Position numbers and translations under genes: made by a program. The notes beneath the pieces were generated by a model. The model was not told where the DNA came from, searched no databases, and worked only from the letters and a program-made list of their open reading frames with translations. Shown piece after piece: positions 28,600 through 35,546 of a stretch of DNA of 64,000 nt. The DNA comes from Escherichia phage ALITA. The DNA lies in the sequence record PP359570. The stretch is one strand, 5' to 3'. Position 1 is the stretch's first letter. Each line of letters opens with the position of its first letter.

Positions 28600-29412
28600 T
28601 TACTTAGTCAAATGATCTTCTATCATTTTTATGAAAGCAGGATTGCTAAAAGCCTCTGCTGCCTTTTCTCTATAAACAAAGACTCCTCTATCTTCGTAAA
28701 GAAGAGTTTCTTCGTAATTAATTCCTGGGTTAACAACAATCATTTTTGTACCCATATTAAGTGCAGGGAATAATTCCCAATTAAAATTGATAACTTGGTT
28801 TGAACATCCTACTACAACAACCAAATCTTGCATGGTCAAAGTATCAAACAAGTGAGCCATATCTGCATACAAAGGTGCAGCCTCACCAAAAAATACAACA
28901 TTAGGCTTCACCCAGTTATAATCATCTATGTTTATACTATTGTAACCAATGTCTACCAGTGTTTTGTAATCTCCAGGATGCATACGGTAAACTACTTCAG
29001 GAAGATACCCGTGCACGTGAATAACAGAATCCCTGTCCACACCTGCTCGCTCTAATAGATCATCAACGTTTGTTGTCAAGTTTACTACTTGGTTAGGATA
29101 TTCCTTAAACCACTTTGCTATTTGAATATGTGCAGCATTAGGTTGTACATCTTTAAGCTCAACACGTCTTTTGTTATAAAATTCGTGTGTTTTGGCATAC
29201 AAATCCATACCGTTCTCGTCTACACCACCGACCACTGGAAGATCTGGAGATGTTCTCACACGATAACCTGCTTGGAAAGCTCCAATATCGCAGACCTCTT
29301 CTAAATCATATTCTTCCCACAAGGCACGACCACTATCTGTGTCTGTTCGGAACGTTCGAATCCCACTGTCTGCACTTAAACCTGCGCCACTAACAAAAAT
29401 TACTCTTCGCAT
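28600..29412 (-). CDS. Sir2-family (sirtuin-like) NAD-binding protein
   Basis: N-terminal FVSGAGLSADSGIRTFR matches GAG(I/L)S...GI..FR; IHVHG catalytic-His context; no obvious CxxC...CxxC Zn module. Confidence 0.65.
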   Translation of the reverse strand: MRRVIFVSGAGLSADSGIRTFRTDTDSGRALWEEYDLEEVCDIGAFQAGYRVRTSPDLPVVGGVDENGMDLYAKTHEFYNKRRVELKDVQPNAAHIQIAKWFKEYPNQVVNLTTNVDDLLERAGVDRDSVIHVHGYLPEVVYRMHPGDYKTLVDIGYNSINIDDYNWVKPNVVFFGEAAPLYADMAHLFDTLTMQDLVVVVGCSNQVINFNWELFPALNMGTKMIVVNPGINYEETLLYEDRGVFVYREKAAEAFSNPAFIKMIEDHLTK

Positions 29413-29969
29413 TCAATATCCTCTTCGTAATCATCATCCCAAGAAGATGCGTCGTAACGCTCTTCCTCTTCGAAATCCCAATTAATTTCTACTCCAAAAT
29501 CTAAAAACAATTTAACAATGTTTTCTGTAGAGTAGTATTTATCATAAGCGTTAGCTAGTTCCCAATACTTGTCACTCAATTTTTTATATTTAGGATCATT
29601 ATAATCATAATCTACTTTATAACCATAATCATACATCTCTTGTTCAGCTTTAAGCATAGCTTCTGGTGTAAGAAGATTAGGGAACGGACGATTTCTTTCT
29701 TTTAACTTAGAAACAATCCAGTTTGCAACATTTGCCACTTCACCATCTTGATTATCACCTAAACAACTTGCATAATCTCCATCTTCGTAAGTGCCTAAAT
29801 CCCCACAGACCACATGTACAATAGATGAATACGATCCACACGTTTCACAATCTGAAAAAGTGTCTACTGTTGTAATATCAATAGATAAAACTGGTAAAGC
29901 CATAGCTTCTTTCACACAAGCCTCCTCATATAATAACATATCATCAAAACCCATATATCCTCCACACAA
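29400..29969 (-). CDS. hypothetical acidic protein (189 aa)
   Basis: ORF-track ORF; D/E/Y-rich C-terminus; overlaps Sir2 start by 13 nt (operon). Confidence 0.5.
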   Translation of the reverse strand: MCGGYMGFDDMLLYEEACVKEAMALPVLSIDITTVDTFSDCETCGSYSSIVHVVCGDLGTYEDGDYASCLGDNQDGEVANVANWIVSKLKERNRPFPNLLTPEAMLKAEQEMYDYGYKVDYDYNDPKYKKLSDKYWELANAYDKYYSTENIVKLFLDFGVEINWDFEEEERYDASSWDDDYEEDIECEE

Positions 29970-30740: not shown

Positions 30741-31730
30741 CTATTCCTCCATACATTTAAGAATATGTGCAATGACAGGTATAGTCCAACCGTTACCTAA
30801 CATCTTATATGCTTGTGTGTTACTACTCACTTTAAAGTAGTCATCTGGCACACCTTGCAAACGGCAACACTCTTTAACGGTTAACTTTCTATAATGTACG
30901 CCTTCACTCAATTTTTCAAAAGCATCTAAATATCTTCCAGGTGGAATGTAAGCTAATAGTACGTCTTTCGGCACAGTCGTGAGGCAACGAGTTTTTTCAC
31001 TGTCCTGAACTTCCAAACAATGTACCAAACGATCAGTTTTAGATGTACTACGTTTGCCATTTTCATTAATTCTACGCCCATATATTGCTGCTGGATAAAA
31101 AACCAGTTGTCTGCGACTCTTTTCAAAATACTGTTCTATATTACCACCTTTGGCATAATTTGCATCTATGCAATAAGCCTTATCTCTGTCTACAATACTA
31201 TCATCTTCAATGATATCTTGCAACACTTCATTGGTAATATCCCAGGGTTTTATTTCCCAGTTGCACCAGTATAAACGTTGTCTATTCTGTGCCGTGAAAT
31301 CTGCGGAGTTAATGAATACGGGATCAACACCTAAGTAACTTGTGATCACGTTTTCCCACTCCACTTTCATCTTAACGTTTTCAAGCATGAACTTAACATT
31401 AGGGTTAAACTTTTTAATATGTTCAAGAATCTCAACATATTCGAAGAATAGCTTAGATCGCGGATCTTGAAAGTTCAAACCCTTACCAGAAGAAGAGAAG
31501 CCTTGACACGGACTACCACCTAACAAAAGATCAATTTCTCCCCACGGGATATCCCATTCTCTCCATTTTGTAACATCACCTAACTGAATAATATCTGGAA
31601 AATTTGCTTGGCTTTCAGCTATGGCGAATTTGTCTAATTCTGAAGCATAATATGTATCTACGTCAATACCTGCACTTTTTAGCGCAAGCATTCCTCCTGA
31701 CATGCCATCAAAAAGACTTAAAACTTTCAT
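30741..31730 (-). CDS. DNA (cytosine-5)-methyltransferase
   Basis: Motif I LSLFDGMSGG, motif IV GGSPCQGFS (PCQ), motif VI MLENV. Confidence 0.85.
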   Translation of the reverse strand: MKVLSLFDGMSGGMLALKSAGIDVDTYYASELDKFAIAESQANFPDIIQLGDVTKWREWDIPWGEIDLLLGGSPCQGFSSSGKGLNFQDPRSKLFFEYVEILEHIKKFNPNVKFMLENVKMKVEWENVITSYLGVDPVFINSADFTAQNRQRLYWCNWEIKPWDITNEVLQDIIEDDSIVDRDKAYCIDANYAKGGNIEQYFEKSRRQLVFYPAAIYGRRINENGKRSTSKTDRLVHCLEVQDSEKTRCLTTVPKDVLLAYIPPGRYLDAFEKLSEGVHYRKLTVKECCRLQGVPDDYFKVSSNTQAYKMLGNGWTIPVIAHILKCMEE

Positions 31731-32197: not shown

Positions 32198-32223
32198 ACA
32201 AAAAACCCGCCGAAGCGGGTTTA
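32198..32223 (-). terminator. rho-independent terminator, UUCG-tetraloop family (reverse orientation)
   Basis: + strand aaaaaacccgccgaagcgggttt = reverse complement of the 2872/27831 element; downstream of 32226..32483; approx. Confidence 0.6.
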
Positions 32224-32225
32224 TA

Positions 32226-32483
32226 TTATTCTACAGGAACTTCTTCACCAAGAGAAACTTCTAAACGGAATGCTTTACTTTCAATACATTCACTACCTTT
32301 TAAGAAATCGAATTGCACTATAGACTGACTTAATAGAATAGATAGAATCACATCGCAATCTTCACTAGGGGCTAGATGTTTGTATTCTTCCTTCAAGGTA
32401 ACATCATAAAAACATAAGTCCCCTACTCCTAGTTCATCCCATCCTTCCCACGCATCTACAAAGTTAAACTCTAAACCTTTCAT
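32226..32483 (-). CDS. hypothetical protein (85 aa)
   Basis: ORF-track ORF. Confidence 0.45.
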   Translation of the reverse strand: MKGLEFNFVDAWEGWDELGVGDLCFYDVTLKEEYKHLAPSEDCDVILSILLSQSIVQFDFLKGSECIESKAFRLEVSLGEEVPVE

Positions 32484-33004
32484 ACAATCTCCTCGTAATT
32501 GTTATTGTGTTTTACTGTCTCAACATACAATAAAGATTCCATCTGTAATACATTACCAGAAATAATAAACCCATAAGCCATTTCAGATGTGTCTATATCA
32601 TATGCCCCGTCTTCCGGTTTAGCAAAGTGTAAAACTATTTCATCTGGGTTTTCTTCATCCCATAGTTTAGAAATTTTCCGAACCAGAATGTTAGCTAAAA
32701 TAGTTGACATTCGGGATAAAGCTGTATCCTCATATCTTTTAAAACCTAGCCAATAGAGGTTAAGAATTTCTACTTCTTCTTGTGTTAAGTTTTTGTCTAA
32801 AGTAATCAGATCTGTAGAGCACGGCGTTTTTGTTGAACCTACTGTTACAAAACCTGGAGTGTTATGAAAAACAATCTTAACTTTATCACGTATAAAGTTT
32901 AAACCTTGTGCCTCAACTATATATTGTATTGTAGGTACAATATCGTTTGTTACATCAATAAAACTATCTTTAATGACGCTTATATTATTTCTGGACAATA
33001 CCAT
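32480..33004 (-). CDS. hypothetical protein (174 aa)
   Basis: ORF-track ORF; 4-nt overlap with downstream gene. Confidence 0.5.
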   Translation of the reverse strand: MVLSRNNISVIKDSFIDVTNDIVPTIQYIVEAQGLNFIRDKVKIVFHNTPGFVTVGSTKTPCSTDLITLDKNLTQEEVEILNLYWLGFKRYEDTALSRMSTILANILVRKISKLWDEENPDEIVLHFAKPEDGAYDIDTSEMAYGFIISGNVLQMESLLYVETVKHNNNYEEIV

Positions 33005-33563
33005 TCTCCTCTAAGATAGGCTTAATAAATTCGAAAATTTGTTTTTTACTTTTACCTCGAATATTAAAACAAGGAACATTAAACTTTTTAGCCAACATCC
33101 AAGCTGTTCTTGTACCACCTAAAGGATCTCCATTTTTATCTGTATTTGCACAAGCCAAAAGAAAACAAGATGGTTTTGGATTCTCAAGATCTCTTCCAAG
33201 AACTTGGTGGATATTTCTTTGATGTAATTTTTTAGCACCTTGAGATAATCTGTCCCAAGCTGGATGCAATTCTTTTGCATATTGCAAGGTTAAAGCATAG
33301 TTTACACTATCTGGTCTGTCAAGAACAATAACCTCTCCCTCTATTTCATTACCTTTAAACGAGAGCCAAGGGATGTATATTTCTTTCTTTGTATTGTTCC
33401 CACTATCATATACCCCGCATTCAAATGCGGAATCTGCACCTTCTGCTTTACCAGATCGCAAAATGAACCATGTAGATAGCCATTTTGCAACAGATACCAT
33501 AGTATCCCATTCTTCGTCTGTAATATCTCTGCTACCAACACCTGTGTAGAATAAATCGCTCAT
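32985..33563 (-). CDS. DprA/SLOG-family Rossmann-fold protein (192 aa)
   Basis: Track ORF trimmed to MSDLFYTGVGSRD (ggagaa SD); GVGSR, GKAEGADSAFE, HQRN..Q, GGTRTAW..A....PCF resemble DprA/Smf blocks. Confidence 0.4.
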   Translation of the reverse strand: MSDLFYTGVGSRDITDEEWDTMVSVAKWLSTWFILRSGKAEGADSAFECGVYDSGNNTKKEIYIPWLSFKGNEIEGEVIVLDRPDSVNYALTLQYAKELHPAWDRLSQGAKKLHQRNIHQVLGRDLENPKPSCFLLACANTDKNGDPLGGTRTAWMLAKKFNVPCFNIRGKSKKQIFEFIKPILEENGIVQK

Positions 33564-33573
33564 GGTTTTCTCC

Positions 33574-33894
33574 TTAACAAGTAATATTGGGAGTAACAAT
33601 TGGATTAACAATTGGAGTGATAGGGTACGTAAACCAAGGGCTTCCAATTTCCCAAGGATTATAAGGTCTACGAGGATCAAATGGAGGAGTTACTTCAGGC
33701 TTTTTCCAAATCTCCGCTAGTTGTTTCTTCCATTTATCCCTTGCTGTCTCATTATCTTCATCCAACTGTTCATCATTATCTTTTATTTCTGGTTTTGGAA
33801 ATAAAAGCTCTTTGACTAACTCAACATCTTCCGTCTCAATAGTAGTTTCTTTCGTAAGTTCTCCTACTGTTTCTTTAATTGTGATTTTATACAT
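33574..33894 (-). CDS. hypothetical protein (106 aa)
   Basis: ORF-track ORF; Pro/Trp-rich C-terminal half. Confidence 0.45.
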   Translation of the reverse strand: MYKITIKETVGELTKETTIETEDVELVKELLFPKPEIKDNDEQLDEDNETARDKWKKQLAEIWKKPEVTPPFDPRRPYNPWEIGSPWFTYPITPIVNPIVTPNITC

Positions 33895-34640
33895 TAGTCC
33901 TCCTCTAAAGTAGAATAAAATTGTAACGTATTTGAATCATCAAAATATGCAAAGGTTAAATTACCATTGAAGCAAGATCCTGTGTCCATATATACCCTAT
34001 TACTGCTAATCATAGGTTTAGGAACATAAGAATGCCCGTGAAATACATAATCTACTCCTGAAACCCTAGGAAGAAGAATCCCTTCAAGTGCGCAATCTAT
34101 CATATCACGATCCCACATTAAAGATTCTGTGAATCGAGAAACTTGCTCTTTATTCATATTCAAACAAAATGGCAAAACTTCTGTCACTGGTAAATGTTCC
34201 AAAACTGAAGGATACCCACCGTGAATAAAGCCTAGTTTCATATTACGATAATTGACAACAAGTACAACAGGTAAATCTTCTAGCATCAAAGCAAGAGCAG
34301 TTGCACCCTCTTCTCCACACTCGTCTAGAACTGTATGGCCTCCGTTCTGAAACCAACATTCGTAATATCGTCTATCACCTTCTAGCAACCCTTTAATCAT
34401 CATATCTTCATGGTTCCCACGAATACCATAACGATTTAGCTTTCTGGTGAATTCAACAACACAACGAAAATTCTGCTTGCCGCGATCTGTAAGATCTCCT
34501 AAAGATACAACAACATCTTGATCTCGGATACCTAAAGTATTAACACCTTTCTGGTACAAATCAAAGCAACCATGTAAATCACCAATAATAAACAGGTCTT
34601 GATCATCTTTTACACTAATTTCTTGATATACTAGCATCAA
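33894..34640 (-). CDS. PPP-family Ser/Thr protein phosphatase (lambda-phosphatase-like)
   Basis: GDLHG, GDLTDRG and GNHE signature motifs in order. Confidence 0.8.
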   Translation of the reverse strand: MMLVYQEISVKDDQDLFIIGDLHGCFDLYQKGVNTLGIRDQDVVVSLGDLTDRGKQNFRCVVEFTRKLNRYGIRGNHEDMMIKGLLEGDRRYYECWFQNGGHTVLDECGEEGATALALMLEDLPVVLVVNYRNMKLGFIHGGYPSVLEHLPVTEVLPFCLNMNKEQVSRFTESLMWDRDMIDCALEGILLPRVSGVDYVFHGHSYVPKPMISSNRVYMDTGSCFNGNLTFAYFDDSNTLQFYSTLEED

Positions 34641-34973: not shown

Positions 34974-35546
34974 TTAATGTGTTAATGAAACTGCGTAACT
35001 AAACACAGGTTCAGATATTACATCGGCTACAGTAATAAAAACGTCTTCGTCTTGAGTTGTTTCTACACGACATACAGTTACACCATTCACCACGAATTCA
35101 ACGCAATGTGGAATATCTTCACAAACGAAGGTAGTGTAAGTAACACCCAAAGCATCATACAAAGATTTAACAGTGTTTGCAAGTGCCGCAGTTTCTTCTT
35201 TTTCTGAGACAATGAATGCTGTAACAACAAGATTGTTTGCATAGTTTAGACTGTCCTCTATAGCCAATGATTTACAAGGTAGTAATGCAAAATATTTACC
35301 TGGTTTAATCAGACCTGCTTCCCATTGATTCAAAATTGCTTGGGATGGTTTAGTAATATAAAACAGATTTTCACTTGGGTTATCAATATTACTTCTGGCG
35401 ATACAACGTGAAGGATTATTAATATCAAACACATGATCAAAATCTACACAAACTGGTAAACTGAAAGGTGTGAATTTTTTACCTAATAATCCTACTGCTG
35501 ACAATATGTTTGCTGTGCTTATCTTCCCGTTAAAAGCTAAACGCAT
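34974..35546 (-). CDS. hypothetical protein (190 aa)
   Basis: ORF-track ORF. Confidence 0.5.
   Translation of the reverse strand: MRLAFNGKISTANILSAVGLLGKKFTPFSLPVCVDFDHVFDINNPSRCIARSNIDNPSENLFYITKPSQAILNQWEAGLIKPGKYFALLPCKSLAIEDSLNYANNLVVTAFIVSEKEETAALANTVKSLYDALGVTYTTFVCEDIPHCVEFVVNGVTVCRVETTQDEDVFITVADVISEPVFSYAVSLTH

Follow-up and report, generated by a model that had tools for sequence, protein, structure and literature searches.

Escherichia phage ALITA (sequence record PP359570) carries, in the 64,000-nucleotide stretch of DNA analysed here (the window), a gene for a homologue of gp047 of Escherichia phage phi92, a protein predicted to fold as a member of the SLOG superfamily (Smf/DprA-LOG Rossmann-like proteins). 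Here we describe this gene and the protein family that it represents, with a focus on what its fold, conserved residues, domain fusions and genomic neighbours suggest about its role—a matter on which the existing annotation may mislead. The first-pass annotation had placed a DprA/SLOG-like protein at 32985-33563, limits that are exact for a minus-strand open reading frame running from ATG (33563..33561) to TAA (32987..32985). Its AGGAG ribosome-binding site (Table 1) overlaps the stop of the gene that lies upstream (33574..33894), and the phi92 record annotates an identical AGGAG motif for gp047. A program-made list of open reading frames offered a longer, TTG-started version reaching 33680; this start is unsupported and was rejected because the homologues of the SLOG protein begin at MSDLFYTGVGSR.

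Between positions 31000 and 36000 the window is 99.3% identical to phi92 (Justusliebigvirus), 99.5% identical to phage Nernie, and 99.0-99.5% identical to a dozen phi92 relatives; the SLOG protein itself is 99.5% identical to phi92 gp047 (tblastn). It matches PHROG 768 with an E-value of 7.5e-60, and PHROGs is the only one of the family databases searched to name it—Pfam, NCBIfam and PADLOC gave zero matches for the window protein, even at E<=1, and a PDB search with the single sequence returned a chance match alone (NSA2, E 0.83). In the phi92 record gp047 appears as a 'potential DNA processing protein like fold', and in RefSeq as a 'DprA-like DNA recombination-mediator protein'; PHROG 768 (phrog_768) bears the same 'DprA-like' name, and 'DNA recombination-mediator protein' recurs across sampled annotations of family genes. 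At the level of the fold, the reading of this gene as DprA-like is hence not new, and restating it re-derives the existing annotation of phi92 gp047 and PHROG 768.

Table 1. Features of the SLOG gene and its surroundings in the window (aa, amino acids; nt, nucleotides).
Feature	Position	Strand	Description
SLOG-fold gene (phi92 gp047 homologue)	32985..33563	minus	Open reading frame, 192 aa, stand-alone domain
Ribosome-binding site AGGAG	33570..33574	minus	Read from the sequence, 6 nt before the ATG of the SLOG gene
GVGSR loop	33528..33542	minus	Residues 8-12, after strand 1; G10 and R12 invariant; aligns with DprA GSR/GTR
SGKAEGADSAFE loop/helix	33420..33452	minus	Residues 38-48, after strand 2; G38, A40, G42 and D44 invariant; aligns with DprA SGxAxGID
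GADSAFE	33420-33440	minus	Residues 42-48
Family-specific segment	33255..33374	minus	Residues 64-103, between strand 3 and the RN helix
H-x-R-N-x-x-Q helix motif	33204..33224	minus	Residues 114-120; H114, R116, N117 and Q120 invariant, 77/77 members
RN	33213-33218	minus	Residues 116-117
GGT loop	33111..33119	minus	Residues 149-151, invariant, before helix 150-160; aligns with SGS of H. pylori DprA
PCF	33066-33074	minus	Residues 164-166
Downstream gene, phi92 gp046 homologue	32480..33004	minus	174 aa, PHROG 8569, without Pfam match
Terminator-like hairpin	32203..32222	minus	8 bp, 5 G-C, AAACCCGC-TTCG-GCGGGTTT, T-run; directly after gene 32226..32483
Promoter-like site TTGACA/TAAACT	32198-32170	minus	After hairpin 32203-32222
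Sir2-family gene	28600-29412	minus	270 aa; Nernie copy matches PF02146, E 1.3e-22; 3.6 kb downstream of the SLOG gene
NinI-like calcineurin-type phosphoesterase	33894-34640	minus	Two genes upstream of the SLOG gene

An AlphaFold2 model of the SLOG protein, based on an alignment of 77 homologues, has a mean predicted local distance difference test score (pLDDT) of 96.8 and a predicted template modelling score (pTM) of 0.92. Strands and helices alternate in the model to give a three-layer alpha/beta structure with a parallel sheet, and the loops of the SLOG superfamily are present: glycine-rich after strands 1 and 2, and GGT before the C-terminal helix. Searched with Foldseek against the PDB, it retrieved Helicobacter pylori DprA as the top match (E 5.7e-6; template modelling (TM) score 0.54-0.59); later matches were the molybdenum cofactor (Moco) carrier protein, Streptococcus pneumoniae DprA, LOG proteins, the SLOG domain of ThsA, ShosA and YpsA—the strong structural matches all fall within the SLOG superfamily. 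The first-pass annotation had proposed a DprA/Smf (SLOG) fold and named AlphaFold and Foldseek among its checks; with these two run, a fold unrelated to SLOG or DprA did not appear, and the proposal is borne out by a model with a pLDDT of 96.8, by DprA in first place and by a set of matches that holds SLOG structures only. Structure prediction thus supports the gene product as a SLOG-superfamily member.

The motif blocks from which that proposal had been drawn (GVGSR, GADSAFE, RN, GGT and PCF) are each present in the translation. In the alignment of 77 homologues, whose identity goes down to about 40%, 15 columns are invariant (G10, R12, G38, A40, G42, D44, H114, R116, N117, Q120, G123, S132, G149, G150 and T151) and a further 21 are nearly so; G.G[ST]R occurs in 73 of the 77 members, SG.A.G.D in 76, and GGT in all of them. 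The quoted blocks are far beyond chance; they coincide with these invariant columns. Placed on the AlphaFold2 model, the 15 invariant and 21 nearly invariant residues map to the C-terminal edges of the strands and to the helix before strand 4, an arrangement that, in the model, fits a defined pocket. Between strand 3 and that helix lies a segment that belongs to the family (Table 1): it holds an IPW..F loop, an extra strand (77-80), a helix (87-99) and an HPAW motif, with P65, W66, F69 and H100 nearly invariant, and alignments to DprA sequences gave no confident counterpart for it.

Is the protein, then, a DprA? The nearest named family by sequence is DprA: sub-threshold matches to PF02481 (DNA_processg_A) occur in 66 of the 77 members, the best at E 3.6e-6, and the five best sequence matches of the family profile in the PDB are all DprA, at marginal E-values of 0.06-0.18. 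The gathering threshold of PF02481 (29.6 bits) was reached by no member tested. The similarity is limited to the first ~45 residues, where the GxGSR and SGxAxGxD motifs lie, and the aligned stretch, in the members for which it was displayed, spans model positions ~42-101 (of 212), or up to 127 in one member. E. coli Smf and its relatives combine PF25317, PF02481 and PF17782; among 256 family proteins scanned, none has the SAM-like N-terminal or the winged-helix C-terminal domain that characterises canonical DprA. Comparison by hhalign gave a probability of 8.8% against E. coli Smf alone and of 29% against 14 enterobacterial DprA sequences—an alignment so shallow (>=68% identity) that it is a weak test—with credible alignment at the N-terminal motifs only.

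The residues by which DprA binds single-stranded DNA (ssDNA) may be retained in part. In H. pylori DprA these residues are R52, R143 and R170 (PMC12961424). R52, the arginine of the GTR motif, corresponds to the invariant R12 when counted on the profile alignment; the invariant R116 of the RN motif is plausibly the counterpart of R143, and the position of R170 aligns with M156, which is not conserved. From position in the fold, we infer that the H-x-R-N-x-x-Q helix and GGT loop are homologous to F-x-R-N-R-I-I and SGS of DprA. The gp047 family is a distinct SLOG family adjacent to DprA rather than DprA proper—the relation is one of resemblance, not membership.

This family is large and mostly phage-borne. 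A word-indexed search returned 238 homologues, and when 1.84 billion cluster representatives were scanned with a hidden Markov model (HMM), 6083 clusters (50% identity) matched at E<=1e-3, of which 2277 also passed E<=1e-30, with most members 160-200 residues long. By tblastn, the family is present in 1506 of 50,697 phage records, or ~3%, spread over many unrelated phage groups that include phi92-like and rV5-like myoviruses, Pakpunavirus, N4-like Schitoviridae, some T4-like Straboviridae, Queuovirinae and jumbo phages; a structure search of BFVD showed only this wide occurrence in phages. Strict motif scans confirmed 255 loci in viral contigs, whereas the genomes of 185,579 bacterial and archaeal species, scanned with a smaller alignment, yielded 3; because the motif patterns were strict, the latter figure is a lower bound and does not prove that the family is absent elsewhere.

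Domain fusions give a first indication of the company that the family keeps. The survey covered the 28 family proteins of at least 225 residues, and the named domains found fused to the gp047-type domain all belong to ADP-ribose biology: NADAR, DUF4326 and other SLOG domains. NADAR is fused in four proteins (P0121, P0122, P0141 and P0206). DUF4326 is fused in another four (P0072, P0196, P0221 and P0231), and it stands on either side of the SLOG domain, which implies at least two independent fusion events. In P0121 (1475 residues) and P0122 (1488 residues), two gp047-type SLOG domains are joined to SLOG domains of the YAcAr and LDcluster4 types and, at the C-terminus, to NADAR, an architecture reminiscent of the 'polyvalent' proteins that phages and conjugative elements encode. 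Recombination, SAM or winged-helix domains occur in none of the 28 long proteins.

Two further fusion partners are known by PHROG number, and neither has a Pfam match or a PDB sequence match. The first, phrog_2072, is fused as the C-terminal ~130-170 residues of P0187, P0190 and P0256 and carries the motif VFVFGSN..G.HG.GAA ... YAIPT; a by-eye impression that it is Macro-like was unsupported (hhalign probability 0.1%, without a PDB sequence relative). The second, phrog_9995, forms the N-terminal ~128 residues of P0199 and P0230, with the motif Y.VS.KGDKRFS. A candidate kinship of the fused NADAR domains with T4 AdfN was likewise dropped: tblastn gave YbiA-like phage NADARs, T4-type 30.3 was absent among 40 sampled matches, and the Pfam Phage_30_3 matches of these domains are sub-threshold.

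Genomic neighbourhoods were compared across 80 IMG/VR loci and the window locus, in which open reading frames were called and clustered; at 70% identity of the central protein these make up 41 lineages. Within 5 kb of the SLOG gene, the genes counted were PhoH (11 lineages), a calcineurin-like (NinI-like) phosphatase (8, second in frequency), Macro domain (6), Prs-like (6), Nampt-like (5), Sir2 (3), NADAR (3) and DUF4326 (2); a Macro, NADAR, DUF4326, Nampt-like or Sir2 gene lies within that distance in 13 of the 41. The SLOG gene is also frequently near ribonucleotide reductase (RNR) genes. No conserved recombination-protein neighbour was found in the 41 lineages. The contigs of four distant relatives hold mainly unannotated small phage genes, and no obvious partner was found on them. 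A gene for a PhoH-like ATPase, a neighbour at L054, L060 and L085, among other loci, and in Aeromonas phage 4_4572, often stands directly upstream of the SLOG gene, an adjacency that could be inherited synteny or a functional link.

The Prs-like and Nampt-like neighbours deserve a closer look. Phage 'Prs + Nampt' pairs have been described as NARP1, a pathway that uses Adps and Namat to regenerate NAD+ out of ADP-ribose and nicotinamide (10.1101/2024.02.11.579819), and a Macro gene beside NARP1 has been described as Adpp, an ADP-ribose-1''-phosphate (ADPR-1''P) phosphatase that extends NARP1 against aRES (10.64898/2026.01.28.702374). In our set, Adps-like and Namat-like genes both lie within 5 kb in 3 of the 41 lineages, in three gene orders, and either one does in 6 of the 41; the pairs are named by likeness, a level at which Adps/Namat and true Prs/Nampt are not distinguished. 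In one lineage (L057) the order is SLOG, Adps-like (with a 4-nucleotide overlap), Namat-like, one other gene and DUF4326; in a second (L027) it is Adps-like, Namat-like, a gene for 152 residues and SLOG; and in Pakpunavirus PaP1 (also L025) it is Adps-like, Namat-like, Macro and SLOG with small genes interspersed, an order confirmed for PaP1 by public annotation. NARP1 was counted in 859 of 20,185 phage genomes (the aRES paper, 10.64898/2026.01.28.702374), so part of NARP1 near the SLOG gene in 6 of 41 lineages is an apparent excess—a suggestive enrichment near NARP1-like genes. A SLOG or DprA-like gene goes unmentioned in the two NARP1 papers (Osterman et al. 2024, 2026).

We propose, tentatively, that the gp047 family serves the phage NAD+/ADP-ribose counter-defence network as an accessory, binding an NAD+-derived ribose-phosphate nucleotide and either hydrolysing or sequestering it; we consider this quite possible, although short of probable. 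In its favour speak the SLOG-only structural matches, the pocket-like pattern of conserved residues, the ADP-ribose fusions, the neighbourhoods, the NARP1-like pair and Sir2-family gene carried by phi92-like phages themselves, the predominance of viral over cellular loci (255 to 3) and the earlier prediction of Iyer et al. 2022 (PMC9503650) for viral SLOG domains. The ligand class and the choice between catalysis and binding are what we infer here, next to a fold, family, conservation, fusions and neighbourhoods that the analysis shows. A classical SLOG pocket, built by the GxGSR loop, the SGxAxGAD loop, the aromatic IPW..F loop, the H-x-RN-xxQ helix and the GGT loop, would receive the nucleotide; candidate ligands are ADP-ribose, phosphorylated or cyclic ADP-ribose, or a related signal. 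Once bound, the ligand would be either hydrolysed or held, which would make the protein an enzyme or a sponge, acting alongside NARP1 (Adps and Namat), the Macro phosphatase Adpp, NADAR and DUF4326. A bolder form of the proposal, which we regard as rather doubtful, makes the family a widespread, uncharacterised accessory enzyme or sponge associated with NARP1; it could, for example, convert or trap an NAD+-derived product that NARP1 is unable to use, such as cyclic or modified ADP-ribose, and the analogy would be with Adpp, which extends NARP1 against aRES. The first-pass annotation had offered either promotion of recombination-dependent replication, with DprA's loading of RecA as the model, or sequestration of a defence signalling nucleotide; the context of the relatives disfavours RecA loading and favours nucleotide binding or processing.

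Several points weigh against this proposal. The window phage has uninformative local neighbours, with 3.6 kb separating the SLOG gene from the closest NAD-related gene and ~31 kb separating it from the NARP1-like pair. Among the 41 lineages, 28 have no NAD/ADP-ribose gene within 5 kb, and the commonest neighbours, PhoH (11 lineages) and the metallophosphatase (8), are unspecific for ADP-ribose; the counts of 13 and 6 of 41 come from lineages that are not independent samples and stand without a phylogeny-corrected background. DprA, the closest relative by sequence, binds ssDNA, and R12 and R116 plausibly match its ssDNA-binding arginines. The LOG motif PGGxGTxxE (pattern GG.GT..E) occurs in 0 of 77 members, none of which matches PF03641 (Lysine_decarbox), so chemistry of the LOG type is unsupported. 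A ligand, enzymatic or genetic test of the gp047 family was not found in the searchable literature.

The label matters nonetheless for how the gene is understood, as the family fails the defining features of DprA, travels with ADP-ribose domains and lies by a NARP1-like operon in several lineages. NAD+ depletion and signals derived from ADP-ribose stand at the centre of the conflict between bacteria and phages, and further accessory enzymes that extend NARP1 continue to be reported. If the proposal is true, the annotation 'DprA-like recombination mediator' is functionally wrong; if the family is another such accessory, a widespread counter-defence gene would be added and a misleading annotation corrected.

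The best-surviving alternative takes the label at its word: a minimal DprA-like recombination mediator would bind ssDNA, load host RecA or protect the ssDNA, and support recombination-dependent replication or repair of the phage. DprA is, after all, both the nearest family by sequence (66 of 77 sub-threshold PF02481 matches) and the top Foldseek match, R12 is invariant, and the helix that precedes strand 4 carries the RN pair (R116, N117), as it carries RNRII in Smf. The gene string around the SLOG gene also includes genes for an exonuclease, a DNA polymerase exonuclease subunit, RNR and thymidylate synthase; in the Queuovirinae phage EC151 a true family member adjoins a primase/helicase gene; and Iyer et al. 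2021 raised the possibility that the DprA/Smf of jumbo phages serves as an additional ssDNA-binding protein. Yet the protein is a single domain of 192 residues, and the flanking domains of DprA occur in 0 of 256 family proteins; the PF02481 gathering score is unreached, with only model positions ~42-101 of 212 aligned; and neither the hhalign probability against enterobacterial DprA (29%) nor the non-conserved equivalent of R170 (M156) speaks for DprA. Recombination proteins are absent among the fusion partners and conserved neighbours. The annotation of ~138 of the 146 kb of the near-identical phage Nernie contains no RecA/UvsX-type gene (both of its 'ATPase' genes are AAA+), and the near-neutral isoelectric point of the window protein (6.8; family median 7.1) is weak evidence in the same direction. 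On balance we find a recombination mediator unlikely.

A second alternative would unite the DprA-like sequence affinity with the NADAR and Macro associations: an ssDNA-recognising module that helps NADAR or Macro to find or expose DarT-type ADP-ribosylated bases, or that cleaves such adducts itself. NADAR enzymes are known to remove ADP-ribose from guanine in ssDNA, and the phage NADAR T4 30.3/AdfN counters DarTG1 (PMC11257639; 10.1101/2025.11.20.689424); both would suit such a module, as would the predicted role of DUF4326 in linking NAD-utilising systems with DNA modification (PMC7824862). The fused NADARs, however, resemble the widespread YbiA-like phage type, with T4-type 30.3 absent among the 40 sampled tblastn matches; the Macro neighbour is found in a NARP1 setting, for which the characterised enzyme's substrate is soluble ADPR-1''P and not DNA; and DNA binding by the gp047 family is hypothetical. 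We judge this alternative to be very unlikely.

Lower still stands a LOG/PpnN-like phosphoribohydrolase, which would split AMP or another nucleoside monophosphate into base and ribose-5-phosphate and remodel nucleotide pools, possibly with an anti-Avs role like that of ORF83 of phage PhiDruSM1. The frequent proximity to RNR genes would suit such an enzyme, and the invariant RN pair and GGT threonine are analogous to the residues modelled as AMP-binding in ORF83. That protein, annotated 'Smf/DprA', was picked up in a knockout screen in which its loss lowers plating on AVAST type III hosts (10.1101/2024.04.14.589459, preprint); it has been modelled as AMP-binding and LOG-like via R89, N90, T112 and D114, and the same modelling preprint found the DprA dimerisation and RecA-surface residues lost and a low interface predicted template modelling score (ipTM) with RecA (10.1101/2025.06.06.658234), a finding on ORF83 that does not carry over to gp047. 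Against the alternative, PGGxGTxxE with its catalytic glutamate is absent in 77 of 77 members and PF03641 is unmatched, the anti-AVAST-III phenotype of ORF83 comes from a preprint knockout screen with a mechanism that is modelled, and ORF83 belongs to a different family of 130-residue proteins. The last point can be made with gp80 of the related phage Seurat (130 residues; KM236243 53155-53547; L095 3656-4048), which is annotated 'hypothetical protein' and has exactly R89, N90, T112 and D114; by these residues it is very likely the orthologue of ORF83, a small YspA/DUF2493-like SLOG protein. The gp047-family HMM scores 9.4 bits against gp80 (hhalign probability 6%), and PF10686 (YspA/DUF2493 type) is unmatched by the 77 members. 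A transfer of the anti-Avs3 phenotype from ORF83 to gp047 was rejected, as ORF83/gp80 is a different SLOG family; what ORF83 does show is that phage 'DprA-like' proteins can be counter-defence genes, and it says nothing direct on gp047. A mimic of the ShosA antitoxin was rejected, given the null result in PADLOC, the missing SAM domain and a structural match weaker than those to DprA and LOG.

In this phage, the SLOG gene lies within a long leftward string of genes, with exonuclease, polymerase, RNR and thymidylate synthase genes at one end; the string continues with PhoH, an HslV-like peptidase, methyltransferases, the NinI-like phosphatase and the Sir2-family gene. The gp046 homologue begins with a 20-nucleotide overlap with the end of the SLOG gene, so that these two genes are probably co-translated—a translational coupling suggested by the gene layout. 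It is the +1 neighbour in 2 of the 41 lineages, the phi92-like phages and one other. The hairpin listed in Table 1 probably ends the transcription unit that holds the SLOG gene and, together with the promoter-like site, would mark a unit boundary inside the string, as far as a match to consensus can indicate; counts in the promoter and terminator scan were not above those of shuffled controls, the one strong hairpin being noteworthy.

The start of the Sir2-family gene overlaps a gene of unknown function for 184-189 residues (29400..29969). The NARP1-like pair of the phi92-like phages (in Nernie, L088 32397-35095) is annotated there as an adjacent 'nicotinamide phosphoribosyl transferase' and 'ribose-phosphate pyrophosphokinase'; lying ~31 kb from the SLOG gene, it would map to ~64111-66809, beyond the end of the window. 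The presence of a phage-encoded sirtuin alongside a NARP1-like pair in these phages is itself noteworthy. Other genes in the string include a Dcm-like C5-cytosine DNA methyltransferase (30741-31730, minus strand, 329 residues), which belongs to a set of four or more methyltransferase genes annotated in phi92-like genomes, and a 190-residue 'histidyl tRNA synthetase' (phrog_4806; 34974-35546, minus strand) that has no Pfam match and is far too short for a histidyl-tRNA synthetase. A second gene of the phrog_4806 type with the same label and length (573 nucleotides) stands elsewhere in Nernie (L089 21486-22058), and the label looks unreliable. Phage phi92 is regarded as a virulent phage, and an integrase did not appear among the annotated stretches of the near-identical phage genome.

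Set beside known systems, the gp047 family shares with DprA/Smf (PF02481; H. pylori 4LJK/4LJR, S. pneumoniae 3UQZ and E. coli Smf) the N-terminal GxGSR and SGxAxGxD motifs, the RN motif on the helix before strand 4 (RNRII in Smf) and a small-residue loop before the following helix, which is GGT in the family and SGS in DprA. It differs in being a single domain without SAM or winged helix, in that ~140-145 of its 192 residues superpose on DprA, in having its own insert of ~40 residues with the IPW..F and HPAW motifs, in fusions and neighbours that are ADP-ribose enzymes rather than competence or recombination genes, and in being mostly phage-borne. Relative to the LOG/PpnN phosphoribohydrolases and the Moco carrier protein (2IZ5, 9US2, 5WQ3, 1WEK and TM1055 1RCU), identity is 14-19%, and the family lacks both the PGGxGTxxE catalytic motif and a match to Pfam Lysine_decarbox. 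The SLOG domain of ThsA (the Thoeris sensor of 3' cyclic ADP-ribose, 3'cADPR) and ShosA are weaker structural matches than DprA, LOG and the Moco carrier protein; ShosA, the DprA-like antitoxin of ShosTA, has a SAM domain, absent in the gp047-type protein, and DprA dimer features that this protein appears to lack, and none of the PADLOC-DB models, ShosA and ThsA included, matched at E<=1. PhiDruSM1 ORF83 is, like gp047, a stand-alone phage SLOG protein labelled 'Smf/DprA' by annotation pipelines; ORF83/gp80 has an RN pair and a G-G-x-G-T loop, and its relatives are fused to DUF4326.

The closest parallels in context are two ADP-ribose systems. Iyer et al. 2022 reported fusions of viral SLOG domains with Macro, NADAR and DUF4326 and predicted the SLOG domains to be sensors or processors of ADP-ribose derivatives (PMC9503650); the link between viral SLOG proteins and ADP-ribose is thus already published, and the same partners, NADAR and DUF4326, were found here independently for the gp047 family. 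That work places most viral SLOG domains in a YpsA-like clade, whereas the gp047 family is nearest DprA by sequence. What is possibly new is the recurrent placement of gp047-type genes beside NARP1-like operons, along with the lack of support for the 'recombination mediator' label. With NARP1 and its NARP1-AP accessory enzymes (Osterman et al. 2024, 2026), the family has in common genes near Macro, Adps-like and Namat-like genes and, putatively, a logic of genomic arrangement—accessory enzymes encoded beside an operon that rebuilds NAD+.

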